From Heterodontus francisci (taxonomy: Eukaryota): a DNA stretch of 64,000 nucleotides. The stretch lies in the NCBI RefSeq assembly GCF_036365525.1, contig NC_090387.1, positions 90,189,691 to 90,253,690 of the forward strand, given 5' to 3'. The translations under genes and the position numbers were made by a program. Below are positions 3,101 through 52,837 of the stretch, piece after piece. Numbering within the stretch: the stretch's first letter is position 1; each line of letters opens with the position of its first letter. The notes under the pieces are model-generated. The model had not been told where the DNA came from. It saw nothing but the letters and a program-made list of their open reading frames with translations, and did no database searches.

Positions 3101-3683
3101 TGCTAGAATTAATAACAAAGGATGCATGATAGGACACTTTGAAAATAATGGTAGGATTGGGCAGAGTCAACGTGGATTTATGAAAGGGAAATCATGTTTA
3201 ACAAACCTGTTGGAGTTTTTTGAGGATGTGTCTAGAAGAATAGGTAAGGGGAAATGGGTGGATGTGGTATATTTAGATTTTCAGAAAGCTTTTGATAAGT
3301 TCCCACATAAGAAGTTAGTAAACAAAATTAGAGCACGTGGGATTGGGATAAATATACTGGTATGGATAACTGGTTAACAGACAGAAAACAGAGAATAGGA
3401 ATAAATGGGTCATTTTCGGATTGGCAGGCTGTGACTAGTGGGGTACCATAACGATCAGTGCTTGGGCCCCAGCTATTCAGAATCGATATCAATGATTTGG
3501 ATCTGGGAATTCAACGTAACATTTCCAAATTTGCAGATGACACAAAACTAGGTGGCAGTGCGAGTAGTGAGAAGGATGCAAAGAAGCTTCAAGGGGATTT
3601 GGAATGCTAAGCGAATGGGCAAAAAATTGGCACAGGGAATACAATGTGGAGAAACGCGAGGTTTTCCACTTTAGTAGGAAAAA
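130..3683 (+). mobile_element. Degenerate CR1-clade LINE (ORF1 SGNH/esterase remnant, ORF2 endonuclease and RT remnants)
   Basis: ORF 537-908 has VVVGGDNIVRGID..CLPGARVRDI..GTNDI, typical of the CR1 ORF1 esterase. ORF 3093-3377 has QRGFMKGKSCLTNLLEFFE..VDVVYLDFQKAFDK (CR1 RT). Many stops and frameshifts. Confidence 0.85.
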
Positions 3684-4758
3684 TTGAATTGGCTGGCCCA
3701 TATAAGTCAGAGGGTGGTAGTAGATGGAAAGTATTCAGCATGGAGCTCGGTGACCAGTGGTGTTCCACAAGGATCTGTTCTGGGACCTCTGCTCTTTGTG
3801 ATTTTTATAAATGACTTGGATGAGGAAGTGGAAGGCTGGGTTGGCAGGTTTGCCGATGACACGAAGGTTGCTGGAGTTGTGGATAGTGTGGAAGGCTGTT
3901 GTAGGTTGCAACGGGACATTGACAGGATGCAGAGCTGGGCTGAGAAGTGGCAGATGGAGTGCAACCTGGAAAAGTGTGAAGTGATTCATTTTGGAAGGTC
4001 GAATTTGAATGTGGAATACAGGCTTAAAGACAGGATTCTTGGTAGTGTGGAGGAACAGAGGGATCTTGGGGTCCATGTCCATAGATCGCTCAAAGTTGCC
4101 ACCCAAGTTGATAGGGTTGTTAAGAAGGCGTATGGTGTGTTGGCTTTCATTAACAGGGGGATTGAGTTTAAGAGCTGCGAGGTTATGCTGCAGCTCTATA
4201 AAGCCCTGGTTCGACCACACTTGGAATATTGTGCTCAGTTCTGGTCGCCTCATTATAGGAAGGATGTGGAAGCTTTAGAGAGGGTGCAGAGGAGATTTAC
4301 CAGGATGCTGCCTGGACTGGAGGGCATGTCCTACGAAGAAAGATTGAGGGAGCTAGGGCTTTTCTCATTGGAGCGAAGAAGGATGAGAGGTGACTTGATA
4401 GAGGGGTACAAGACGATGAGAGGCATAGATAGAATGGATATCCAGAGACTTTTTCCCAGGGTGGAAAGGGCTATCACCAGGGGGCATAATTTTAAGGTGA
4501 TTGGAGGAAGGTTTCAGGGAGATGTCAGAGGTAGATTCTTTACACAGAGAGTGGTGGGTGCGTGGAATGCGCTGCCGGCGGTGGTAGTAGAAGCAGATAC
4601 ATTAGGGGCATCTAAGTGCCTCTTGGATAGGTACATGGATGATAGTAGAATGAAGGGTAGGTAGTTAGTTTGATCTTAGAGTCGGTTAAAGGTTCGGCAC
4701 AACATCGTGGGCCGAAGGGCCTGTACTGTGCTGTATTGTTCTATGTTCTATGTTCTAT
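3684..4758 (+). mobile_element. Young 5'-truncated CR1 LINE with open RT C-terminal ORF (3684-4664)
   Basis: 326 aa open frame with SGVPQGSVLGPLLF, FADDTK and LVRPHLEYC. Ends in a (GTTCTAT)n microsatellite tail at about 4738-4758. Confidence 0.92.
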
Positions 4759-18284: not shown

Positions 18285-19390
18285 GAACATAGGAAGATAG
18301 GAACAGGAGTAGGCTATTCAGACCCTCGAGCCTGTCCTGCCATTTAATGAGATCATGGCTGATCCGCGGCCTAACTCCATATACCAGCCTTTGGCCCATA
18401 TCCCTTAATATCTTTGCTTAACAAAAATCTATCTATCTCAGATTTAAAATTAACCACTGTTCTAGCTTCAACTGCTGTTTGTGGGAGAGAGATCCAAATC
18501 TCTACCACCCTTTGCGTGAAGAAGTGCTTCCTAACATCTCTCCTGAATGGTCTGCTCCTAATTTTTAGACTATGCCCCCTAGTTTTTGAATCTCCAACCA
18601 GTGGAAATAGTTTATCTTTATCTAGCCTGTCTTTCCCTGTTAATATCTTGAAGACTTCAATCAGATCACCCCTTAACCTTCTAAATTCTAGTGATAACGG
18701 GCCTAATATCTCCTCGTAACTTAACCCCTGTAGTCCATGTATCATTCTTGTAAACCTACGTTGCACTCCCTCCAAGGCCAATATATCCTTCCTAAGGTGT
18801 GGTTCCCAGAACTGCTCACAGTACTCCAAGTGGGGTCTAACCAGGGTTTTGTACAGTTGCAGCATAACCTCTGTGTCTTTATACTCCAATCCTCTAGATA
18901 TAAAGGCGAGCATTTCATTAGCCTTTTTGATTATTGTCTGCACTTTCTGGGGGCATTTTAAAGATCTATGTACCTGAACCCCCAAGTCTCTTTGGACATC
19001 CACTGTACTTAACCTCTTCCCATTTAGAAAGTACCCTGCTCTATCCTTGTTTGGTCCAAAATGGATAACCTCACACTTGCCCGCATTGAAATCCATCTGC
19101 CACAGTTTTGCCCACTCACCTAGTCTGTCAATATCTCTTTGCAATCTTATGCTATCAGCTAGACTGTCTACAATGCCGCCTAACTTAGTATCATCATCAA
19201 ATTTGGATATATGACTTACTATGCCATCATCCAAGTCGTTAATGAATAATGTGAATAATTGAGGCCCCAACACAGATCAGTGCGGGGCACCACTAGTTAC
19301 AGCCTAGCAGTCGGAGTACTTACCCATTATCCCCACTCTCTGTCGCCTACCACTCAACCAACTTTCTAACCATGTCAATAATTTTCCCTC
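18285..19390 (-). mobile_element. CR1 LINE 3' portion (ORF 18371-19273)
   Basis: 300 aa frame LGPQLFTLFINDL..SKFDDDTKLGG..LVRPHLEYC. Confidence 0.9.
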
Positions 19391-35560: not shown

Positions 35561-37921
35561 AAGTCAACACTAAATACTGCAGCACCTGCCACATCACTCC
35601 CTGCAGACAATTGAAGCTTGAAGCAATTATGGACAAAATGGGGAAGGCTTCGAGTCGTAGCAACAACCAGAAGAAATCAAGCAACAACTAACTTATAAGT
35701 AGTTGATGATCCCTGTAAAAGTGCTGGTGGATGGGGCCTTCCTGCTGTTGAAAGACTGTTTAGTTGTGTGATGCCTAAAAGCAGGCATTGGCTGGACCGT
35801 TGAGCTCCAATATGCAGACTTATGGGGACTAAATTGGACAGTTCTTTCAAAGAGGCTGCACAGGCACGCTGGGCCAAATGGCTTCTTGCAATGCTGTAAG
35901 ATTCTCCAGTTCTCTCTGAAATCTTACCTGTGTTGAGATAGGTCGTAGCCTGCGGAAGGTCGTGTGGGAAACAATAAGGGGGGGGGGGAAATTCTACTCG
36001 AGTATGTCCTCATCAATCCACCAGCAGATGCATTTGCCTGGTCTGCATACTTCCTGAAGACTCCCATTGCTTACAAACTAACACCTGCACCAAGATGTTT
36101 TTAGACATGCTTTGCATCACAGTTGTCCACACGTGTTGCAGAGGCCATTTTGCACCGAGCGACCAAAAAGCGGGCGTTAATGAGCTTAATTTCTCGCCCA
36201 GCATGGCTCAGCCATTGGTTGAAGAGGCACACTGTTGCTTGTCCTGCTCACACACATACCACAGGTCCCCTCTAGAGGGCAGCATACTGTAAAGAATCAC
36301 GAGCAATCCTCAGTTGCCCCTCAAAAGTTCACGAAACCTTTGTGGACAGTTGCCAAATTAATGAACACCGAGAGCGGCTCTTTTGTTCGTGACCGCAAAA
36401 TTGGGGGACGTGATCTTCATACACTTCACTGTGGGGATGGATTGATGCATTACACACTGACAACCTGGTGACTATCTTTCCATTGTCCCTCTCCCTCTCA
36501 ATCAGACCTGTGTCAAAGTTCTTCCCTCCCTGCATCTGTCCATGATCAATAGATGCATCAAGGAATCTGTGGGTCACTTTGTCCCCTGTACACGTGATCC
36601 GAGATTAATTTTCTACAAACCTTTGTTCTTTTGTAGGTAAACAGTGATATTTGTGTCTGTGCCCCTGCGTTTGAAGCATCTATAAGCCATTAAATGCTGT
36701 GACAGACGAGTTCAGCCTTCTTCCAACCCATTATCGATTTTGTGCACTGAGTCGCTTCCCAGTATGATAATTGCTGACCATATTTTGATTGGAAGAGTCA
36801 CCGAGCATTGGTTGGATAGTTATTAGTAGCCTACCTGGCTACTTTTGCCAATTATCAAATAGAAAGTGGCACAGAAACAGCATAAACAGCCGTCCTGCAC
36901 ACTGCACGTGGTATATGTTGGGGTTTGCCGCAGTCACTGAAGTTATCGCAGGAGATCTGGAGTATATCACTAAACTTATGGGCCGTAGAGCTTTAAATAT
37001 TTCACAATTTCCTACACTGCAGTTCGAAACATCTCTGCTGACTTGGTTGAAATGACGTAGATCATTGCGGGAGAATGTTGGCACAGATCTCGCAATGTCC
37101 CGCTGTATATTCTCTGGACGATTAACGCAAACTCTGCACAAATGAGTAACGGCTGGAATTAACCATTCTCGCCGTTTTCCGGGAAGTCTGCCTGTTTCCT
37201 GTCAGAGAACTCCGTCGAAATTCTATACGTACTGCCCTGAAATCCACCATTTCCGGATCAGTCCATCCCCTTTTCATCACAGTTTTCCTTAATGTAGGAC
37301 GTCCTGAGGCAAGGCCGGTCCAGCTGCTGTGTGTAACGAAACCGGGCGGACCACCTGGCATCAACTTAGGAACCGGGAATGGCAACGACACGCCAAACCC
37401 TGCAGAATCCTCCTTACTAACATCTGGAGGCTCGTGCCGCAATTGGGAGAGCTGTCCTACAGAATAGTCAAGCAACAGCCTGATATCGTCATACTCTCAG
37501 AATCATATCTTACGCCAATGCCCTGGACACCGCCATTACCATCCCTGGGTATGTCCTGTCCCACCGGCAGGACAGACCCAGCAGAGCTGGCAACACAGTG
37601 GTATACGTTCGGGTGGAGTGCCCTGGGAGTAATCCTTAACATTGAATCCGGACCACATGAAGTCTCATGGCACGAGGTCAAACATGGGCATGGAAACCTG
37701 CTTATTACCGCCTGGCAGAAGCACTGAGTGTCCATCATCAGGATGGTACTTCGGTAGCACCACTACTGACTGAGCTGGCCAAGTCCTGAAGGACCTATCT
37801 GCTAGACTGGGCCTGCAGCAGGTGGTTTGGGAACCAATAAAGGAGAAAAATCTGCTCGAGTATGGTCTCATCAATCCACTAATCGCAGATGCATCTATGA
37901 CAGTATAGGTAGGATTGACCA

Positions 37922-38600
37922 TGTTGTGTCTAATCCGCACTTACTCTTAAAGAATTCATGGAAGCTGATTGGTGAAAGGTACATCAATGTTTTATTCACA
38001 CACTAAATCATCATGTACAATCTCTCACTACTTACACTGTGTACGACATGTAAAGGCACGAGGTGATCAGTCTCGGACTTGCGGCTGTTCTCCTGTTCTC
38101 TGAGTCCCTGACTCAGGGGTCTCTTCTCGAGTGTTCTTCCCAGGGTTCTTGTGCCATTCCCAGTTTCAGTCAGGGATTGAATCCTGTTTCCAAGACCCTC
38201 TTCTCTTACTTATAGGGGTCTGGTACAATGATAATTCCTTGTTTGGTTCAGTGAGAGCCTAGTCAGCACTTCTCAATTTCCACACTTCCCCATTGTCTAG
38301 CCATAAGTCTAAACTTATCTCGTGTCCATGTCGACTGCTTTATCTGCTACATGCAAGGACCTTTTCTGGTTTCATCACGTCAGCACTTCTTGTTTTAACA
38401 TGTTTTCCTGTGCTGTCTGCAATTCCGTGGATATCTGTGTCTTGTTCCCCTTTCTACCCAACAGCACTCCACCCCGCCGCCGCACCCCACCCCCCACCCC
38501 CATGTCTCAACACACTGTGTAATTATTTATAACTAGCCCCTTTGTCTCAACTAAGTTCTTATGTGTTTTTACTGAGTGTACAGTTTTTACTGGGTCTACA
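37922..38600 (-). repeat. ERV 3' LTR
   Basis: TGTTGTG...GGGTCTACA. The adjacent C-run at 38605-38630 is the minus-strand PPT. AATAAA on the minus strand near 37990. Confidence 0.9.
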
Positions 38601-38739
38601 GACACCCCCCGCCCCCCCCCCCCCCCCCACCACCACCACTTTGATCCTGCAGGGCTATGCCCAAGGGATCACACTTTCATGTCCCTTAGGTTGTACACTT
38701 GTTCAATTGCAATTTTATAAGCAGGGTAATGTTAAAGAT

Positions 38740-39111
38740 TAGTTTAGTTTAGAGATACAGCACTGAAACAGGCCCTTCGGCCCACCGAGTCTGTGCCGAC
38801 CATCAACCACCCATTTATACTAATCCTGCACTAATTCCATATTCCTACCACATCCCCACCTGTCCCTACATTTCCCTACCACCTACCTATACTAGGGGCA
38901 ATTGCTAATGGCCAATTTACCTATCAACCTGCAAGTCTTTGGCTGTGGGAGGAAACGGGAGCACCCGGCGAAAACCCACGCGGTCACAGGGAGAACTTGA
39001 AAACTCCACACAGGCAGCACCCAGAACTAAACCCAGGTCACTGGAGCTATGAGGCTGCGATGCTAACCACTGCGCCACTGTGCCGCCCCCACTGCGCCAC
39101 TGTGCCGCCCC
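38740..39111 (-). mobile_element. HE1-type V-SINE inserted between env and the 3' LTR
   Basis: Same family as 33643-33972, with a tandem duplication of about 20 bp at its 5' end. Confidence 0.85.
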
Positions 39112-39113
39112 AA

Positions 39114-40906
39114 TTAATTGTCTATCTTTTTATAGAGCAAGTTTGAACACTGATTGCCTTTATGGTAGCTGTCTAACCTGTGTTCATACATCCTCTCACA
39201 TTGCTTAATCAATTTCTTAAGTTTCCAAATTAAGTATGTCACATATAACACCAGGATACCCAGAATCACTATCAGGACATAGGAGGTAATTCCAAACCAG
39301 GGGTGTAGCTGCACATTTGACCACCCCCCGCCCTTCCACCCAGTTCCACAAGTCCTCCCACCAAGTAGAATCGTTTATCTAGTCAATCTCATCTTGTACC
39401 TTTTTTGACTGTTGTTCCAGATTGTAGCATGCTAGACCAATGGCCTCTAGCTGCTGTGTCTCGTGAACCATGCATGTGGGTGATGGCTGAATAGTATATG
39501 CGTATTCCCGGAGGTAATTTATCAATTCCTCCTTAATACATTTTGTCACAGTTATTGTTTCAGTCTTCCATATATGTATGTCTACCAACTCCATCTTCCC
39601 TACTCTAGTTGATATTTGTGGGTTGAAACAAAAAGTACTGTTGCTCACTGGTTAAGTTCGGTTATGTCCATACTGGCATTCCTTCACCGTAGTGGTTAAG
39701 CAATATCTCCCCTTTCCCATATAGGCGACATGGATTGGCCCTGACAATGCTTTCCTAGTCTCCATGGTGTGATTTACAGTGGCATTAAATCCACATTTTG
39801 AGTCTGCTGTTTTGTATATAGGATGAGGACAAATGACCTCCTGGTTTTCCAACTACCTCCTCTCTGATTCCCACAACATAGTGTAGTATATCATAGTATT
39901 TTACTTAATCTTTTCCCCTTATCACCCCTATATTTTCTACTTCATATAATTGCATCCCTAACATATCTCTTAGAATTGCAGGTATTCTCAATACTACTCC
40001 AGTAGTCGTAGATCTTGTATTTACACACTCCAGACCTTTCCATACCTTAACAAGTTTTCTGAGTTGGCACCTGGTAATTTTATCATTTGTGTGACTAGCT
40101 AAGTACTCCAACTGGGTGTCATGTATCCAAACTGGCACATGTCCCGCATCAATTTGCCACAATTTTTCCCGAGTTTGTTCTAAAATTCACAAGCCATATG
40201 TACTACAAACACTTTCATTGTTTGAAATGTCGTGGACCTCCTTTACCTTTTCTATTATATCATTAATAGTATGAGCCTGATCTTCCAGTACTCTCACCAG
40301 TCCTGTCACTGTGTTTGTCAAATCCTGTCGTACTTTAGCTGCATCACTCTGTCCCTTTTGTTCCTTTTTCAAAATATCCTTTACTAGCTGGCTGAGAGTT
40401 CTAACTTTCTGGTCCATGCTTTCCAAATCTATAGTATTGACAATTGAAGTTTCCTAATATAAGATCGTAGCTGCATCATTCACTAAACTATGTTTGCATC
40501 TTTTTCCCTTCATTACTCCCTCATCCCCGAATTCTCGTCCCGGCAATTGTTGGCGTAACAACTTATACAAAACTCGGGTCTTCTCAGGGCACCAGTCAGG
40601 CAACTGGATATCCGAGATATTCAATACTACCGGTACCAACTCATGCTGTACCTTATCATATACAATTCTATTAGTTTTTATGATCGCAAATCCATTTTCT
40701 GGTCCTGCAGTTAAGGCAGGGCAAGGGAGATCAGTCACTTGTGGCTGAGGGGTTGTAACGCTACTCGTCGGTAATTCAGATGCGGGAATAACCGTGGTGG
40801 TTGGTGCTTCTTGCCCCCATAAGCCAACAGTATGGATCCAAAGGGTGTCTACGTCATCTTTCATAACACAATGGAGCCAATAGCCCTTATCGTTGTGTGG
40901 TTTCAC
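39114..40906 (-). pseudogene. env: ERV env: F-type class I fusion glycoprotein, disrupted
   Basis: Successive ORFs 40454-40906, 40187-40426, 39905-40162, 39652-39852, 39379-39648 and 39114-39314 give a Thr/Pro-rich segment, degenerate furin site KRCKH, heptad repeat, Cys-rich region, second heptad, WWEDLWNW, and TM FGITSYVLIVILGILVLYVTYLIW. Confidence 0.8.
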
Positions 40907-40961
40907 ACATATTGATTGGTTCCTACAGTCTTTATCATCGCACTGCCATCCAGGAAACTCG

Positions 40962-42960
40962 GGGCCCCCATTTTTGACAACTTATCAGCCCTCCTGTTTC
41001 CTTCAGGGGCCTCCATACTATGAGCCTTTACTTTGATGAACCCACTTCTGACCTTCCCCTTTCTTCGCTGCGGTTACTATTCTCTGCAATAATGGGGCAG
41101 ACAGCAAAGGTTTTCCATCTACTGACACAAAACCTCTCCCTTCCCACAGAGGCAAGTACTCAGTTTACCTGTTACACAGGTACATATGTCAGAATATATG
41201 TAAACCGGTGGGAGAAACATATGTCATTGTATCACCACAAAAGCAACCGCAGCTATTTCTGCACCCTGCGCACTTAAACTCACTGGTAACAGTAAGGCAA
41301 TGACTTTAATAGTTTTTCCACTACGATCCTGTACATGTAATCAACAGGATGTCAGAAAGGCTCCATCCATCAATATCAGCGACCACGCTCTGGAAGTGGT
41401 TCAAGAGTTCACCTACCTAGGCTCAGCTATCACCAGTAACCTGTCTCTCGATGCAGAATTCAACAAGCGCATGGGAAAGGCTTCCACTGCTCTGTCCAGA
41501 CTGGCCAACAGAGTGTGGGAAAATGGCGCATGGACACGGAACACAAAAGTCCGAGTGTATCAAGCCTGTGTCCTCAGTACCTTGCTCTACGGCAGTGAGG
41601 CCTGGACAACGTATGTCAGCCAAGAGTGACGTCTCAATTCATTCCATCTTCGCTGCCTCCGGAGAATCCTTGGTATCAGGTGGCAGGACCGTATCTCCAA
41701 CACAGAGGTCCACGAGATGGCCAATATCCCCAGCATATACACCCGGCTGAGCCAGAGGCACTTGAGATGGCTTGGCCATGTGAGCCGCATGGAAGATGGC
41801 AGGATCCCCAAGGACACATTGGACAGTGAGCTCGTCACTTGTATCAGACCCACCGGCTGTCCATGTCTCCACTTTGACGATTTCTGCAAATGTGACATGA
41901 AGTCCTGTGACATTGATCACAAGTCGTGGGAGTCAGTTGCCAGTGATCACCAGAGCTGTCGGGCAGCCAGAAAGGCGGGGCTAAAGTGTGGCAAGTCGAA
42001 GAGACTTAACAGCTGGCAGGAAAAAAGATGGAAGCGCAAGGGGAGAGCAAACTGTGTAACAGCCCCCACAACCAATTTTATCTGCAGCACCTGTGGAAAA
42101 GTCTGTCACTCTAGAATTGGCCTTTATAGCCACTCCAGACGCTGATCCACATACCACTGACCACCTCCAGACGCTTACCCATTGTCTTTCGAGACAAGAG
42201 GCCAAAGAAGAAGAAGAAGAAGAAGAAGAAGAATCAACACCCTATTTGCCTGATCCCGTCCTCCACTGTGGAGGAACCATCAACAAAGGATTTTAGTGCT
42301 GGTTTGATTGCTGGCTCCTTCCCTTGTACACCCCCAATGATTTTGATACAAAAGTCCCTTGAGGGCCTTTGCTGTCAAAACCTGACACTCATGGGGCTCA
42401 CTCTGGTAGATTAAATTGTGCACCAGTCATGTAGTAGTTCTTGCCCTTTTTACCAAAATATCTTTACCTTGCAAGAACAAGGTCCACTGGGCAATACCAT
42501 TCTGAATAACATCACCGCCCTTCAGTCCTCCATGCAGTAACAACTGGATAGGCGTGTGTTCAGTCAGGATAGTTACGGGGCTGAGGCGGACAATATAAGT
42601 AAAATTTTGAATCACCCAAAAGACGGCCCGCAAGTGCTTTTTTCACATACTGTAAAGGTCCATTCTACCGATGTTAACAAGAGAGATGCGTACGCCACTA
42701 GGCAAAATCGACCACGTTTTTCCTGAGGCAATACAGCTGATAAGGTAGCATCTGTGGTAGCAACCTTAAGGGTAGGGATGGATCTGGCACCTGTAGCGCC
42801 GGAGCTGTGGCCAGTGTCTGTTTTAATTCTGTAACCGCTGAAGTACACTCTGGTGTCCCACTCAGAGTTCTTCTTCAGGAAATCATACAAAGGGGCTGCT
42901 TTTAAAGCAAATCCATCAATATGATCCCTGCACTACCCTACGAGGTCCAAAAATGATCTC
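40962..42960 (-). pseudogene. pol: ERV pol: tether (degenerate RNase H) plus retroviral RNase H, interrupted by an RTE
   Basis: 42427-42890 tether (LSAVLPQE..VAYAS..CEK..QWTLFLQ). FVDGSS at 42270-42287. After removing the RTE: SAQGAEIAAV, IYSD, KVKAHS..GNRRADKLSK (to about 40965). Confidence 0.85.
41347..42231 (+). mobile_element. RTE-clade LINE, 5'-truncated, in the ERV RNase H
   Basis: LEVVQEFTYLGS, LRWLGHVSRMEDGRIPK, C-terminal C2H2; (GAA)n tail; TSD AATCAACA at 41339-41346 and 42232-42239. Confidence 0.92.
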
Positions 42961-43057
42961 AGAGCCTTAACTTTTATTTTTTATTGAGAGATACAACACT
43001 GAAACCGGCCCTTCGGCCCACCGAGTCTGTGCCGACCATCAACCACCCAGTTATACT

Positions 43058-45616
43058 TTCTCTTTGGCCTGCTTGTCTCGGGAGACAATGGGTAAGTGCC
43101 TGGAGGTGGTCAGTGGTTTGCGAAGCAGTGCCTAGAGTGGCTATAAAGACCAATTCTAGAGTGACAGATTCTTCCACAGGTACTGCAGATAAAATTGGTT
43201 GTCGGGGCTGTTACACAGTTGGCTCTCTCCTTGCACTTCTGTCTTTTTTCCTGCCAGCTGCTAAGTCTCTTCGACTCGCCATGCTTTAGCCCCGCCTTTA
43301 TGGTTGCGCGCCAGCTCTGGCGATCACTGGCAACTGACTCCCACGAATTGACATCAATGTCACAGGATTTCATGTCGCGTTTCCAGACGTCTTTAAAGCG
43401 GAGACATGGACAGCCGGTGGGTCTGGTACCAGCGACGAGCTCGCTGTACAATGTGTCCTTGGGGATCTTGCCATCTTCCATGCGGCTCATATGGCCAAGT
43501 CATCTCAAGCGCCAATGGCTTAGTAGGGTGTATATGCTGGGGATGTTGGCCGCCTCGAGGACTTCTGTGTTGGAGATACGGTCCTGCCACCTGATGCCAA
43601 GCATTCTCCGGAGGCACCGAAGATGGAATGAATTGAGACGTCACTCTTGGCTGACATACGTTGTCCAGGCCTCGCTGCCATAGAGCAAGGTACTGAGGAC
43701 ACAGGCTTGATACACTTGGACTTTTGTGTTCTGTGTCAGTGCGCCATTTTCCCACACTGTCTTGGCCAGTCTGGACATAGCAGTGGAAGCCTTTCCCATG
43801 CGCCTGTTGAATTCTGCATCGAGAGACAGGTTACTGGTGATAGCTGAGCCTAGGTAGGTGAACTCTTGAACCACTTCCAGAGTGTGGTCGCCGATATTGA
43901 TGGATGGGGCATTTCTGACGTCCTGTCCCATGATGTTCATTTTCTTGAGGCTGATGGTTAGGCCAAATTCGTTGCAGGCAGGCGCAATCCTGTCGATGAG
44001 TCTCTGCAGACACTCTTCAGTGTGAGATGTTAATGCAGCATCATCAGCGAAGAGGAGTTCTCTGATGAGGACTTTCCGTACTTTGGTCTTTGCTTTTAGA
44101 CGGGCAAGGTTGAACAACCTGCCACCTGATCTTGTGCAGAGGAAAATTCCTTCTTCTGAAGACGTGAACGCATGTGAGAGCAGCCAGAAGAAGAAGATGT
44201 GACGGGTAGGTCGTGCCTCACAAACCTTATTGAGTTTTTCGAGAAGGTGACCAAACAGGTGGATGAGGGTAAAGCAGTGGATGTGGTGTATATGGATTTC
44301 AGTAAGGCGTTTGATAAGGTTCCCCACAGTAGGCTATTGCAGAAAATACGGAAGTATGGGGTTGAAGGTGATTTAGAGCTTTGGATCAGAAATTGGCTAG
44401 CTGAAAGAAGACAGAGGGTGGTGGTTGATGGCAAATGTTCATCCTGGAGTTTAGTTACTAGTGGTGTACCGCAAGGATCTGTTTTGGGGCCACTGCTGTT
44501 TGTCATTTTTATAAATGACCTGGAAGGGGGTGTAGAAGGGTGGGTTAGTAAATTTGCAGATGACACTAAGGTCGGTGGAGTTGTGGATAGTGCCGAAGGA
44601 TGTTGTAGGGTACAGAGGGACATAGATAGGCTGCAGAGCTGGGCTGAGAGATGGCAAATGGAGTTTAATGCGGAAAAGTGTGAGGTGATTCACTTTGGAA
44701 GGAGTAACAGGAATGCAGAGTACTGGGCTAATGGGAAGATTCTTGGTAGTGTAGATGAACAGAGAGATCTTGGTGTCCAGGTGCATAAATCCCTGAAGGT
44801 TGCTAACCAGGTTAATAGGGCTGTTAAGAAGGCATATGGTGTGTTAGCTTTTATTAGTAGGGGGGTCGAGTTTCGGAGCCACGAGGTCATGCTGCAGCTG
44901 TACAAAACTCTGGTGAGACCGCACCTGGAGTATTGCGTGCAGTTCTGGTCACCGCATTATAGGAAGGATGTGGAAGCTATGGAAAGGGTGCAGAGGAGAT
45001 TTACTAGGATGTTGCCTGGTATGGAGGGAAGGTCTTACGAGGAAAGGCTGAGGGACTTGAGGTTGTTTTCGTTGGAGAGAAGGAGGAGGAGAGGTGACTT
45101 AATAGAGACATATAAGATAATCAAAGGTTTAGATAGGGTGGATAGTGAGCGTCTTTTTCCTCGGATGGTGATGGCAAACACGAGGGGACATAGCTTTAAG
45201 TTGAGGGGTGATAGATATAGGACAGATGTGAGAGGTAGTTTCTTTACTCAGAGAGTAGTAAGGGCGTGGAACGCCCTGCCTGCAGCAGTAGTAGATTCGC
45301 CAACTTTAAGGGCATTTAAGTGGTCATTGGATAGACATATGGATGAAAATGGAATAGTGTAGGTCAGATGGTTTCACAGGTCGGCGCAACATCGAGGGCC
45401 GAAGGGCCTGTACTGCGCTGTAATGTTCTTCTAAAAAAAAAGATCCCAAACAGTGTAGCTGCGAGAACACAGCCCTGTTTCACACCACCCAGGATAGGAA
45501 AGGGGTCTGATGAGGCACCGCTATGCTGAATTGTGCCTTTCATATTGTCATGGAATGAGGTGATGATACTTAGTAGCTGTGGTGGGCATCCAATCTTTTC
45601 TAGTCATCTGAAGAGT
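43058..45616 (-). mobile_element. RTE-clade LINE nested in the SINE, itself split by a CR1
   Basis: ELLFADDAAL, YLGS, and GVKQGCVLA near 45460-45490; TSD CCCA(G/T)TTATACT at 43046-43057 and 45617-45628. Confidence 0.9.
44199..45439 (+). mobile_element. Young CR1 LINE, 5'-truncated, with intact 387 aa RT frame
   Basis: ORF 44199-45362 is uninterrupted; flanked by an AAGAT duplication inside the RTE. Confidence 0.92.
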
Positions 45617-45869
45617 CCCATTTATACTAGTCCTACACTAATCCCATATTCCCCTACCACCTACCTATACTAGGGGTAATTGATAATTGCCAATTTACCT
45701 ATCAACCTGCAAGTCTTTGGCTGTGGGAGGAAACCGGAGCACCCAGCAAAAACCCACGTGCTGACAGGGAGAACTTGCAAACTCCACACAGGCAGTACCC
45801 AGAATTGAACATGGGTCGTTGGAGCTGTGGGGCTGCAGTGCTGACCACTGCGCCACTGTGCCGCCTACT

Positions 45870-47123
45870 TTGTGATAGGGGGAGTTGGAGGATTGTCTGT
45901 TTTCGCATTTGCTGTAGCTCATGTTTTCCCTGTGTTATTACTATTCCCAAATAGCGAACACCTTTTCTTTCAGTATCTGCGCCTTTTTAGGGTTAATCTT
46001 CACTCCGACCTTCTGGAGGAGTCGAAGGAGCTCCCCCAGTAGCTCTACGTGCTCTGCCTAACTCTCCGTTTGATGTAATAGGTCATCCACATATTGGATC
46101 AAACATTCTGATCAGGAGAAAGGACTTAATACCTTTGCCAACCACTGGTGAAATATTGACGGACTGTTATGAAATCCCTGGCAGAGACACGTCCAGGTGT
46201 ACTGTTGTCCCTGGAACGTTAATGCAAATTTATATTGACACTCTTGTGCCAGCGGTATGGACCAGAACCCATTGCTGATGTCCAGCACAGTAAACCACTT
46301 AGATTGTGGGAACTGCCTCTTTATTGTCTCGGGGCTCATAGCAACAGAAGGTGCTTATTTAACTCTTGATAGTCAATAGTCAATCGCCACGATCCATCTG
46401 GTTTACAGACGGGCCAGATAGAAGAGTTATTGGTGGATGCCACTGGTCTTATCACCCACTGTTGTAGGAGACTGCCTATGACCTTCCTCACCTCTAGCTC
46501 CGCCTGTGTGGGGAAGCCATACTGTTTCTGGGGTCGATGATCTGGTTCCTCAACTAAGACTTCCCCTGCCATGCATCCGCATCATGCTTGCGAGTTGCAA
46601 ACACTGAACGGTGCTGCTCAATACATTGCTGCGCTGCTGCATCAGCAGTCATATCCTCTGGTTTTAACCACAATTGTGCCATCTCACAGATCCTCTCTGT
46701 ATATTGGCCCATTTGGATAATACCAGAGAAACCCTTCACGTTCGGTATTTTCCAGATGCAACAATTCACCATATCGAAAGACAAACCTTGTTTCCTCATT
46801 ACATCTGATCCCAAAATGTTCTGCATCGATCGACCCAACCTGACGATCATACATGCATGGTTAAAACAATAGTTGTCAAGTCTAAATAATAATGGTTTCA
46901 TCTCAAGGCCTGTATGAACATGGCCCGTAAAGCCACTTCGCATCACTTTATTCTGGGTATACCAAGAGGGGTCCGTTCCGTTAGACTGGTTCAGGACTGT
47001 CTGGAAGCTGCTGGTATCCCACAAAAACATAGTGAGGCAGCATCCCACCTCACTTTTCACCACTGGTCGCCCAAATGGATCCCACCTCCCTTTGCAAACC
47101 CGTTCCACCGAGGCCTGACACAA
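45870..47123 (-). pseudogene. pol: ERV protease and reverse transcriptase
   Basis: LWDTSS (degenerate protease site); QKQYGFP, IWPVCKPDGSWRLTIDYQELNK, FTVLDISNGFWSIPL, YTWTCLCQGFHNSPSIF, and LIQYVDDLL (YVDD at 46082-46093). Confidence 0.9.
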
Positions 47124-48900
47124 TCAATCTTCCCAGTCGGTATCTGGGTCAGAATTCCAGGTGACCAATTTGGTTGACCCTTCCTTCTGTCCATCCCTTC
47201 TCCTTATTTCACCAACAGGAGCCATGGGATGATATCGGCCACCCTCGTGCTCCGGCTGCTGAGCCACCAGCCGCCTGGTCCCTTCCAAAGGCAATGGAGG
47301 GTACAGGGATGGTGTGCCTAGATCCCCTTCCCTGGTATGTCGCCGGGATGCATTACAATCATGGGTGAAATGTCCTTGCTTCCCACAATTATAACATCTG
47401 CCGATTTTGGGCAGAGGGGAGTTGTTTCTAGTCATCGCTCTACCTCGCCCCACTTGTTCTTCATAGGGGAGTGGCGATGGTATCCTAGCCATGCCACCTC
47501 GACCCCTCCCGGATCCCTCATTCTTTCATACAGCTTCTGGACCCCTCGGATGGAAGTCACTGATCTTACCCTTTCCCTTGTCTTTATCTTTTTTCCCGTT
47601 TTCCCAGGCCTCTCTCCCATACACGGGTCATACATTGGAGAGCCCACTGTTCAGTGTGGGTTTGGTCTTCCAGATCATAACATTCATGCGTATTTTGGCT
47701 ACTCTCATTAGAATGAGCTATGAAAATGCGTACCCATTTGAATGTGTTCTCCCAAAGATTTCCCCTTTCCAATTCAGGCCCATAAACTCCAATGAAATAA
47801 TTCCATAAACGGTTCGCAAACGCCACCAGATGCTCATTCGGCCCTTGCTGGCACTTTTGCAAGTCTTCCGTGAGATCCTCTTTATTGCTCCCTGGTGCTG
47901 TCAATATTGACGCCTTCATTGCATCCGGTGTTCCCTCACCCCTTTGCTGTGTCTGAAGTAATGCAGAGAAGAGTCTGGGATCTAAACACATTCCCAATAA
48001 TTTAACCTCTTCTCTATGATCCAATCCGTGCAGAGCCTGTAAATAGGTTATTGTCACAAAAGTAATGTGCCAGTCCCCTGTTTCGTTGTACTTAGGGATC
48101 TCCTTCTGCATTTCTGCCAATTAAGTGATAGTATATGGAGTGTTATATGTTATCATCTGCTCACCCGGGCCCCCCTGTTCGATTAGTTATCAATGGCGCC
48201 ACAGGTAGGGCCAGGGTAGGGTCTGATGGCTCAATTGGGTGTCCGGGTGGAGCAAGAGGTGAATCATCCCATGAGCCATTTTCATCGTCATGGTACTTAC
48301 TGGCCTGGTCTGCCTAGTCGGCCCAAATAATGTCGTCATTGTCATCATCCTCCCTATCTGCAAATGCGCATATTATGCCCCTTTGCACTAAAGAGTTGAG
48401 ACTGCAGTTTGCGTATCCCCTGCATTTGGTATGATCCGCTGACTGGTACAGCCGCTCCATCTGTGAGCGGTGCAGAACTTCATTGTGGTCTGTAAGTCAG
48501 AGCATTTCTGTCCTGCTCTTCTGAGCTGTCCCTTCACCCTCTCCGATTCCCTCTCAGCCTTCTTATGACTGTGCTCAGCCTTTTCGGCCTGAGACTGGAA
48601 TTGGCTTAAATGCGCCACCTGTGCTGCATTAACTGCTTCTGCCTTCAGGGCCCTATCATAACACTCATTCTTTCATTTTTCTAACCTCTGAAACTCCTGC
48701 TTCAACTATTCATTCTCCCTTTCCTTTTCATCCAGTTCCTTCATACAAAACGCTATAGCAGTGGCTTGCACTAACCTAGGCAACCATTTGGCTTGGTGGG
48801 TATGCGCATCCTCCCAATGCTGTACCCCAATGGGCCCTTGGCCCGTGTACTGTTTAACTCAAACTTGCTCTGCAAATATTTCCAAAGTTCCAATTCCCAC
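47124..48900 (-). pseudogene. gag: ERV gag
   Basis: Coiled-coil segment 48388-48618; capsid ORF 47584-48120 with MHR-like QGPNEHLVAFANRL; CYNCGKQGHFTHDC zinc knuckle in 47124-47492. The 5' limit is approximate. Confidence 0.8.
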
Positions 48901-49063
48901 TATGGCCTAGCCAGGGCCATAATTACTCAACTGTTGTCCTGTTTTGTCTACACAATTACTCAACCGTTCACCAATCCGATCCACCGAACTCACAATTTAG
49001 TCTATAAATTAGTTCAAACCCAGCAAGGCTACTCAGAATAACTTTAAATAGCACTACAATGGA

Positions 49064-49081
49064 GTTCCATCTGCGTCACCA
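49064..49081 (-). promoter_or_regulatory. ERV primer-binding site, possibly tRNA-Ser(GCT)
   Basis: TGGTGACGCAGATGGAAC, 4 nt after the 5' LTR; about 13/18 match to TGGCGACGAGGATGGGAT. Confidence 0.5.
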
Positions 49082-49085
49082 ATTA

Positions 49086-49794
49086 TGTTGTGCATAATCT
49101 GCACTTGCTGTTGAAGAATTCCTGGAAGCTGATTGGTGAAAGGTATATCAATGTTTTATTGACACACTAAGTCATCAAGTACGAGCTCTCAATATTTACA
49201 CAGTATCAAGAATCAATCAAGTACAAGCTCTAACTACTTGCATGGTATACTAACCGTCAAGGCATGAGGCGATCAGTGTCGGTCTTGCGCTGCTCTCCTG
49301 CTCTCTGAGTCCCTGACTCAGGGGAAACTTCTCCAGTGTTCTTCCCAGGATTCTCGCACCGTCCCCAGTTTCAATCAGGAGTAAAATCTCGTCTCTAAGA
49401 CTCTCCCCTCTTACTTACTCATAGGGATCTGGTACAATGATATTTCCTTCTTTGGTTCAGTGAGAGCCTGGTCAGCACTTCTCAATGTCCACACTTCCCG
49501 ATTGTCTAATCATAAGTCTAATCTTATTTCATGTCCATGGCGACTACTTTATCTGGCACGTGCAAGGGCACTGTCTGGTTTCATTAGGTCAGCACTTCTT
49601 GTTTGAACATGTTTTCCTGTACTGTCTACAATTCATTGGACATCTATGTCTTTTTTCCGCTTTCTACCCAACCCCCTATGTTTCAACATACTATGTAATT
49701 ATTTATTACTATCCCCTTTGTCTCAACTAAGTTCTTATGTGTTTTTACTGAGTCTACAGTTTTTGCTGGGTCTCCAATTTTTGCTGGGTCTACA
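49086..49794 (-). repeat. ERV 5' LTR
   Basis: Direct repeat of 37922-38600 with identical termini. Confidence 0.9.
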
Positions 49795-51115
49795 ACCACC
49801 ACACTGTTCTTGTGAAGACGAAGTCCTGTCTCCACACCGAGGATATCTTCTATTGTGTTGTGTGGCACGAGAACCATGCTAAATGGGATAGATTCAGAAC
49901 AGATCTAGCAGCTCCAAACTGGGCATCCATGAGGCGCTGTGGACCATCATCAGCAGCAGAATTGTATTCAACCACAATCTGTAACCTCATGGCCCTGTAT
50001 ATCCCTCATTCTACCATTACCATCAAGTCAATGATGAGTGTAGAAGGGCATGCCGGGAGCAAAACCAGGCATACCTAAAAATGAGGTGTCAACCTGGTGA
50101 AGCTACAACACAGGACTACTTGCATGTCAAACAGCAAAGCAGCATACAATAGACAGGGCTAAGCAATTCCACTACCAGTCAATCAAGTCAAAGATCTGCA
50201 GTCCTGCCGCAGCCACTTTGAATGGTATTCAATGGACACTTAAACAACTAACAGGAGGATGAGGCTCCACCTCAATGATGGGGGAGCTTAGAACATCAGT
50301 GCAAAAGACAAGGCCGAATTATTTGCAACCACATTCAGCCAGAAGTGCCAAGTCGATGATACATCTCGGCCTTCTGCTGAGGTCCCCAGGATCACAGATA
50401 CTCTACATGATATCAAGAAACAGCTGAAGGTGCGGATGCTGCAAAGACTTCGGGTCCTGACAACATCCCGGCAATAGTACTGATGACTTGTGCTCTAGAA
50501 CTAACCACGCCCGTAGCCAACATTTTCCAGTACAGCGACAAAAGTGGCATCTACCGACAATGTGGAAAATTGCCCAGGTATGTCTGATTCACAAAAAGCA
50601 GGACAAATCCAATACAGTCATTATGGCTCCACGAACCTCTTCTCGATCATCAGCAATGTCATGAGAGGTGTCATTGATAGTGCTATCAAACAGCACTTAC
50701 ACAGCAATAACCTACTTTCAGGCGCTCAGCTTGGGTTCCACCAGGGCTACCAGGCTCCTGACCTCATTATAGCCTTGGTCCAAACATGGTCAAAAGACTG
50801 GACCTCAAGAATGGAGGTGAAAGTGATTGCCTTTGACATTAAGGCAGTATTTGACTGAGTATGGCATCATGAATCCCTTGCAAAATTGAAGTCAATGGGA
50901 ATCAAGGGGAAACCTCTGAACTGGTTGGAGTCATACCTGGCAAAAAGGAAGATGGCTGTGGTAATTGCAGGCCAATTATCTCAGCTCCAGGAGATCACTG
51001 CAGGAGTTTCTCAGGGTAGTGTCCTAGGCCCAACTATCTTCAGCTCCTTCGTCAATGACCTTCCTTCAATCATAAGGTCAGAAGTGGAGATATTCACTGT
51101 TCAGCACCATTCACG

Positions 51116-52837
51116 ATGCATTTACTTTGCATCAGTATTCAACAAGGAGGAGAACTTGGAGGATGATGAGCCTAGGGAAGGGAGTGCAGATAGTCTCAGT
51201 CATCTCATTATCAAAACGGAGGAGGTGTTGGGTGTCTTGCAAAGCATTAAGGTAGATAAATCCCCAGTACGTGATGGGATCTACCCTAGAATACTGAGGG
51301 AGGCGAGGGAAGGAATTGCTGGGGCCTTGACCGAAATCTTTGCATCCTCATTGGCTACAGGTGAGGTCCCAGAGGACTGGAGAATAGCCAATGTTATTCC
51401 TTTGTTTAAGAAGGGTGGTAAGGATAATCCAGGAAATTATAGGCCGGTGAGCCTTACGTCAGTGGTAGGGAAACGATTAGAGAGGATTCTTCGGGACAGG
51501 ATTTACTCCCATTTGGAAACAAACGAACTTATTAGCGAGACACAGCATGGTTTTGTGAAGGGGAGGTCGTGTCTTACTAATTTGATTGAGTTTTTTGAGG
51601 AAGTGACGAAGATGATTGATGAGGGAAGTGCGGTGGATGTTGTCTATATGGACTTTAGTAAAGCCTTTGACAAGGTCCCGCATGGCAGACTGGTGCAAAA
51701 GGTGAAGTCACACGGGATCAGAGGTGAGCTGGAAAGATGGATACAGAACTGGCTCAGTCACAGAAGACAGAGGGTAGCAGTGGATGGGTGTTTTTCTGAA
51801 TGGAGGGATGTGACTCGTGGTGTTCCGCAGGGATCAGTGCTGGGACCTTTGCTGTTTGTAGTATATATAAATGATTTGGAGGAAATTGTAGCTGGTCTGA
51901 TTAGTAAGTTTGCGGATGACACAAAGGTTGGTGGAGTTGCGGATAATGATGAGGATTGTCAGAGGATACAGCAGGATATAGATTGGTTGGAGACTTGGAC
52001 AGAGAAATGGCAGATGGAGTTTAATCCGGACAAATGTGAGATAATGCATTTTGGAAGGTCTAATGCAGGTGGGAGGTATACAGTAAATGGCAGAACCCTT
52101 AGGAGTATTGACAGGCAGAGAGATCTGGGCGTACAGGTTCACAGGTCACTGACAGTGGCAATGCAGGTGGATAAGGTAGTCAAGAAGGCATATGGCATGT
52201 TTGCCTTCATCAGTCGTAGCATAGAGTATAAAAATTGGCAAGTCATGTTGCAGCTGTCCAGAAACTTAGTTAGGCCACACTTCGAATATTGCGTGCAATT
52301 CTGTTCGCCACACTACCAGAAGGACGTGGAGGCTTTGGAGAGAGTACAGAGGAAGTTTACCAGGATGTTGCCTGGTCTGGAGGGCATTAGCTATGAGGAG
52401 AGGTTGGAAAAACTCGGATTGTTTTCACTGGAACGACGGAGGTGGAGGGGCGACATGATAGAGGTTCACAAAGTTATGAGCGGCATGGACAGAGTGGATA
52501 GTCAGAAGCTTTTTCCCAGGGTGGAAGAGTCAGTTACTAGGGGGACATAGGTTTAAGATGTGAGGGGCAAAGTGTAGAGGGGATGTGCAAGGCAAGTTTT
52601 TTACACAGAGGGTGGTGAGTGCCTGGAACTTGCTGCCAGGGGAGGTGGTGGAAGCAGATACGATAGCGACGTTTAAGAGACATCTTGACAAATATATGAA
52701 TAGGAAGGGATTGGAGGGATATGGGCCCCGGAGGTGCAGAAGGTGTTAGTTTAGGCCGGTATCAAGATCGGCGCAGGCTTGGAGGGCCGAATGGCCTGTT
52801 CCTGTGCTGTACTGTTCTTTGTTTTTTGTTCTTTGTT
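51116..52837 (+). mobile_element. CR1 LINE inserted in the host LINE RT
   Basis: CR1 RT motifs make up the last ~475 aa of ORF 50886-52550; (TTCTTTG)n tail; the host LINE resumes at ctcagatactgaagc. Confidence 0.9.

Follow-up and report, generated by a model that had tools for sequence, protein, structure and literature searches.

The window analysed here is a 64-kb stretch of the Heterodontus francisci genome (contig NC_090387.1, positions 90,189,691 to 90,253,690 of the forward strand), and all window coordinates refer to this full stretch. It harbors an endogenous retrovirus (ERV), the whole of which lies on the minus strand and comprises two long terminal repeats (LTRs), a 4-bp target-site duplication (TSD; ACCA), a primer-binding site (PBS), gag, protease, reverse transcriptase (RT), tether, RNase H and env; three further elements are nested inside the ERV. 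The proviral features given below are on this strand. Copies of the TSD occupy the outer flanks of the 5′ LTR (49795..49798) and the 3′ LTR (37918..37921). The 5′ LTR (49086..49794; 709 bp; TG...CA) is followed, 4 nt further inside, by the PBS (49064..49081), of which 15 of the 18 positions are complementary to the end of a host tRNA-Arg(CCG) gene. The gag gene (47127..48930, start approximate) is broken by stops and frameshifts and contains an N-terminal coiled-coil-like stretch (about 48390-48740), a capsid region and a single CCHC knuckle (about 47355-47399). An in-frame stop (47124..47126), likely a read-through site, separates gag from pol, which includes a degenerate protease (46782..47069; PF00077; E=0.004) and a broken RT polymerase core (45866..46600). 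The RT is interrupted by a nested insert (42971..45865), in which a SINE is split by a minus-strand LINE fragment that is itself split by a second, plus-strand LINE fragment (about 44178-45440). The RT thumb, the tether (a degenerate Gypsy-type RNase H) and the first strand of the second RNase H follow (42232..42970). A plus-strand LINE 3′ fragment (41347..42231), similar to 43061-43926, is inserted in this RNase H, the remainder of which (40966..41346) extends up to a deletion junction. The env remnant (39114..40965), likewise broken by stops and frameshifts, includes a coiled-coil region, a Cys-rich region and a membrane anchor (about 39215-39300). A minus-strand SINE (38736..39112) is inserted downstream of the env stop, and a G-rich polypurine tract (38601..38640) adjoins the 3′ LTR (37922..38600; 679 bp). 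All parts listed in the initial annotation of the window are present, and every motif reported there (QGFHNSP, QYVDDLL, FVDGSS, SAQGAEIAA, IYSD and KVKAH..GNRRAD) could be read in the window frames.

Comparison of 17 window fragments against Pfam identified the zf-CCHC (E=4e-4), RVP (E=0.004) and RVT_1 (E=4e-14) domains, as well as the tether-type RT_RNaseH domain (E=1e-4 and 3e-3), while no significant Pfam match was obtained for six window env fragments. In the open frame of a sister copy (P0001) the protease is recognized more clearly (PF00077; E=1e-5), and the in-frame gag/pol stop is present in three of the four distinct family copies examined. The inserts at 38736-39112, 41347-42231 and 42971-45865 are not present in sister copies; we take them to be SINE, RTE and CR1 elements, with Pfam confirming RT alone, in two of the inserts. 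The window LTRs share 86.6% identity over 648 aligned columns (Kimura two-parameter (K2P) distance 0.149). In three sister copies, compared over partial lengths, the LTR pairs diverge less (K2P 0.060-0.097), and the window copy is thus among the older copies seen. The TSD is matched in sister copy L015 and mismatched in L013, and none was found for L011/L012. Absolute dating from the LTRs was uninformative, as a divergence of 0.148 corresponds to about 34 Myr at a mammalian rate (PMC7947760) and to about 340 Myr at an assumed shark rate (PMC4422223).

The loss of the integrase, absent from the initial annotation, was found in the follow-up analysis. At about 40966 the window RNase H passes directly into env without an intervening integrase; by comparison with copy L013/L014, this junction lacks about 2 kb that comprise the integrase and the start of env. 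With RNase H DNA as the query, the 6.0-Gb genome yielded 615 candidates, of which 40 were scored; integrase DNA yielded 117. Among the nine best sister loci, five carry the window junction, one has 92 extra bases there and three (L003, L007 and L009) harbor an H2C2+rve integrase at this site. Furthermore, when the junction itself was used as the query (229 candidates, 40 scored), 38 of the 39 other listed matches extended across it. As the deletion junction is common to at least 38 other copies, the window copy belongs to a non-autonomous subfamily. We infer that the deletion is older than the window insertion and that the defective genome spread in trans. Four loci (L004, L006, L008 and L010) were observed to combine the integrase deletion of the window with further deletions, shared among them, in RT, tether and env, which suggests a second, shorter non-autonomous subfamily.

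Copies of the family also differ in their primer-binding sites, for which tRNA identities were assigned from host tRNA genes. The window PBS matches tRNA-Arg(CCG) at 15/18 positions, tRNA-Arg-CCT at 13 and the Lys and Asn tRNAs at 9-10. Across 71 LTR-PBS junctions of the family, four primer types were counted by eye, namely Lys(UUU)-like (59), Asn-like (5), Lys(CUU)-like (4) and Arg-like (3). More than 50 tRNA-Lys(CUU)-type 3′ ends, arranged in tandem with a spacing of about 2.16 kb, were also observed elsewhere in the genome (G000:C34:12635519-12772687).

The initial annotation interpreted the provirus as a chondrichthyan lokiretrovirus or a related basal lineage. Lokiretroviruses are defined by their RT position together with a PF00523-like Env (PMC7947760), and this defining study found them in none of six chondrichthyan genomes, in line with the host range given in the annotation. 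The phylogenetic position of the family was determined with P0001, a gag-pol frame that is naturally open in sister copy L011 and thus does not come from the window copy; P0001 contains RT, tether, RNase H (PF00075; E=7.5e-19), H2C2, rve and SH3 domains. Among the 120 homologs listed of 334, the closest are frog and coelacanth Pols annotated as 'protein NYNRIN-like' (P0004-P0007 and P0010). These are the nearest named relatives, sharing 52-55% identity over RT-tether and the same domain order; their hosts differ from that of the window family, and frog homologs of its env also exist (P0145 and P0146). Seven of the listed homologs, which differ in their RT motif, served as lokiretrovirus proxies. 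Reference labels were matched by eye to the supplement of PMC7947760, with P0030 corresponding to Loki-Lca, P0048 to the teleost lokiretrovirus consensus and P0026 to SnRV (snakehead retrovirus), while P0067 resembles Loki-Aro. In the supplement text searched, the motif CPFGY occurs at least 71 times and PQGFHNS not once.

A quick RT tree of 120 rows (one of 121 dropped for length) and a careful tree of 50 rows, hand-picked to thin near-duplicates, both place P0001 on the canonical side. The latter separates Gypsy elements, a lokiretrovirus clade (100/99) and the canonical retroviruses (100/99), the sister relationship of the last two agreeing with the published topology. Within the canonical retroviruses, P0001 lies outside the class I and ERV-L clades, in a ten-row group with the frog and coelacanth Pols (support 88/94, not starred). 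Approximately unbiased (AU) tests reject the joining of lokiretroviruses with either P0001 (p=0.017) or the ten-row group (p=0.017) and leave a union of this group with SnRV unrejected (p=0.43). When the window's own RT segment was used, unjoined, the seven proxies ranked 35th-59th of 120 and the frog and coelacanth Pols near the top. The lokiretroviruses are also monophyletic without P0001 in trees of the sister-copy integrase (46 rows) and RNase H (36 rows) domains. The RT lies among canonical SnRV/class III-type ERVs, a placement within known canonical ERVs that the annotation had named in advance as contrary to its claim.

Several observations weigh against this placement. The RT of P0001 is only 65-86% identical to the window RT pieces, the reference labels depend on by-eye matching to the PMC7947760 supplement, and the trees contained no foamy virus. 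The position of the ten-row group among the SnRV, ERV-L-like and class I rows lacks support in the RT tree; the integrase tree places SnRV elsewhere, with ERV-L-like rows, while in the RNase H tree P0001 stands on the lokiretrovirus side of a 96/93 branch. These mixed placements fit an early-branching grade of canonical retroviruses, and an early branching of the lineage among canonical retroviruses is supported.

The RNase H position is one of several features that would be explained if the element were a genuine lokiretrovirus, which would then be the first known from cartilaginous fishes. Lokiretroviruses and lokiorterviruses (PMC7947760, PMC9040795) share with the family a dual RNase H and an H2C2+rve integrase, as well as an F-type Env insofar as the family env is, as is likely, of this type. 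The gag coiled-coil stretch resembles the smc-like open reading frame (ORF) of lokiretroviruses, and lokiretrovirus integrases score 200-245 bits against P0001, higher than class I rows. However, the tether and second RNase H are common to all retroviruses and as such are not diagnostic, and an F-like env does not by itself define a lokiretrovirus, since the F fold is also that of the foamy virus Env (class Ib; PMC11468914). The SnRV-matching genome L075, too, has a Gag coiled coil and an env of this class. The RT motif differs, and the family env homologs extend further at the N-terminus than the two lokiretrovirus Envs of near-full length that were compared. Together with the exclusion of P0001 from the lokiretrovirus clade in all three trees and the two AU rejections, this makes lokiretrovirus membership very improbable. 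An env-bearing Gypsy element (errantivirus) could be considered because Ty3 is the top single match in the PDB and Gypsy env and Baculo_F clusters appear among the Atlas matches of an env homolog (see below). The second RNase H and the two branches of 100/99 or better that separate P0001 from the sampled Gypsy rows leave this reading with practically no likelihood, and the annotation was correct in calling the element a retrovirus on the basis of its tether and second RNase H.

Assignment to a foamy-like (clade Tu) lineage of shark ERVs finds some support in the PDB search, in which foamy Pol was the best retroviral match to the family (247 bits, compared with 232 for murine leukaemia virus and 269 for Ty3). 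Foamy viruses are canonical retroviruses with an F-like class Ib Env (PMC11468914) and a 4-bp TSD, features shared with the window family insofar as its env is likely of the F type. The family, however, carries the RT motif DISNGFW of the SnRV type, from which the foamy rows in the available supplement differ, and no foamy Env match was obtained with env in the PDB. Foamy virus Gag is not known to carry a CCHC knuckle and foamy pol is expressed separately from gag, unlike the knuckle-bearing gag and one-frame gag-pol of the family. We therefore consider a foamy-like origin decidedly unlikely.

The characters of the family come closest to those of SnRV, clade Huo and class III-type ERVs, with which it shares the canonical RT position, SnRV-type motifs and a single CCHC knuckle. 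Clade Huo, the SnRV-related clade, occurs in all major vertebrate lineages (PMC6001957), and lineage I of the elephant shark CmiERVs clusters with SnRV (PMC4422223); the latter, known here from its published description, shares a cartilaginous-fish host with the window family. L075 resembles the family copies in having a stop in frame between gag and pol and, as judged by eye, a Gag stretch of coiled-coil character, with significance in the Gag comparison confined to the CCHC region. The transmembrane subunit of its Env is homologous to the family env. SnRV differs in that the L075 Env open frame (1134 amino acids) exceeds the family env homologs (673-754 amino acids), the family uses several tRNA primers, and there is no supported sisterhood, the two standing apart in the integrase tree. 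The reading as a shark lokiretrovirus is thus rejected, and a cartilaginous fish has already been reported to host SnRV-related ERVs (PMC4422223). The 'related basal lineage' of the annotation survives as an early-branching SnRV-related canonical ERV. The family is not mentioned in the available text of PMC10435555, PMC13709493, PMC12386078, PMC13524379, PMC12583693, 10.1101/2024.03.17.585361 and 10.1101/2023.10.26.564176. It, or the C6 env described below, may already be listed in paper supplements or in Repbase/Dfam.

The window env frame, with X at stops, was searched against 1.84 billion representative proteins, yielding 24 relatives, of which 16 are named (14 from sharks or skate and two from frogs). 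The closest named relative (76% identity) is itself annotated from H. francisci, and the make-up of this set by itself points to a shark as the likely host. One homolog, P0135 of Chiloscyllium punctatum, has a furin-type site at about residue 272 and a membrane anchor at about residue 685. A gamma-type immunosuppressive domain (ISD) motif is present in none of six env proteins, and the sole CX6CC match falls within a membrane anchor. When a profile of the env family was aligned with the Env of L075, the match (hhalign E=2.5e-5; probability 75%; 204 columns) was in register starting at the cleavage site, and the window env is on this basis homologous to SnRV Env. For the frog homolog P0146, the best named Atlas match is to PF00523 F0 clusters (0.92; 201/256 features), with the Gypsy env and Baculo_F clusters at ranks 3-4; we regard this PF00523 match as a moderate lead. 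The entire P0135 matched a single unnamed chordate cluster (0.82), a lead only. Judged from these sequence comparisons, the window env is likely of the F type, built like measles-type fusion proteins. The F-likeness implied by the annotation is therefore probably correct, as an interpretation rather than a direct observation on the sequence. On the opposite side, PF00523 was detected by Pfam at E<=0.05 in none of the 16 env proteins, a PDB profile search with env returned no F, foamy or gamma-type match, shuffled proteins score 0.9 in Atlas 4-10 times per 100, and the HMMER score of the L075 Env is weak (7.4 bits, with 5.6 the best of 600 shuffles). A word-based search for longer env homologs found none among 1837 candidates, and no link between SnRV-type Env and paramyxovirus F was found in the available text of the literature searched.

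Env swaps are common among retroviruses, and the provirus could as such be a recombinant that joins a canonical SnRV-type pol to an env acquired from lokiretroviruses or Mononegavirales. The lokiretrovirus Env, examined by eye in the available supplement, starts with a GP-x-G-hydrophobic stretch like that of the family env. However, no lokiretrovirus-type protein was recognized among the 24 env relatives, 16 of them named, and the same env family occurs in sharks, a skate and frogs and is homologous to SnRV Env, which fits long co-descent with the SnRV-type pol grade. A recombinant origin is accordingly unlikely.

We consider it highly probable that the window element is a defunct provirus without an integrase, belonging to a multi-copy ERV family, with its RT among early-branching SnRV-related canonical retroviruses and an env that is SnRV-homologous and likely of the F type. 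The ancestral virus would have produced Gag-Pol by stop read-through, been primed on host tRNA (mostly Lys-UUU, Arg in the case of the window copy) and entered cells by means of a furin-cleaved class Ib Env. A later deletion would have removed the integrase and the env start, with complete family members supplying in trans the functions for packaging and integrating the defective genome. Once inserted, the window copy would have decayed and gained its SINE and LINE inserts.

Independent env gains for lokiretroviruses and canonical retroviruses have been preferred, as their Envs share no similarity (PMC9040795). We tentatively propose, as a possibility with the balance still somewhat against it, that an F-type (class Ib) env was retained by a group of early-branching canonical retroviruses with shark, coelacanth and frog hosts, as it was by SnRV, foamy viruses and lokiretroviruses. 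F-type Env would then be ancestral and have been replaced later in gamma- and beta-type lineages, while in sharks one such env would have been domesticated and become a spliced host gene conserved in at least three lineages. If SnRV and its relatives in sharks and frogs carry an F-type env, in addition to that of foamy viruses, the premise of dissimilar Envs in PMC9040795 would be weakened, and a single ancestral F-type env would become testable. The domesticated shark env would, if this is true, rank among the oldest captured env genes.

The candidate for such domestication is encoded on C6 by one unbroken ORF of 754 amino acids (G000:C6:34172673-34174931, minus strand; L049:1498-3759; L072-L074). 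Its translated product shares 87.8% identity, without gaps, with Scyliorhinus torazame protein P0171 and 84.8% with P0135, which represent two further orders of sharks, and only about 24% with the window env. It is the only full-length stop-free match among 88, and in the surrounding 30 kb no retroviral gag/pol remnant was recognized, with two weak RT matches only. One contig of run X1 joins an upstream exon across a 3917-base GT-AG intron, which ends just before the C6 env ATG; runs X1-X3 and X6 are guessed to be RNA, with no RNA status on record. Among the listed rows of runs X2/X3, from another organism, there is no indel in the ORF and several in its flanks, while X6, another run on the sample of X1, does not cover the ORF and carries no weight either way. 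Codon-position divergence between the C6 env and its broken relatives (third > first > second) leaves viral and host selection indistinguishable. The C6 env is thus a candidate domesticated spliced gene, which is of interest in sharks, many species of which are live-bearing. No domesticated env of sharks is described in the literature searched, the scope of which did not extend to the most pertinent survey, that of Wang and Han 2020 (msaa180). A dense cluster of dozens of broken C6-env relatives, mostly with 55-75% protein identity to P0135, was observed at G000:C29:32-43 Mb; with its many near-identical pairs, it looks like the product of segmental duplication.

Outside the provirus, the only open frames of more than 220 amino acids in the window are those at 3678-4661, 18374-19276 and 50859-52547, which by eye resemble LINE RT fragments.

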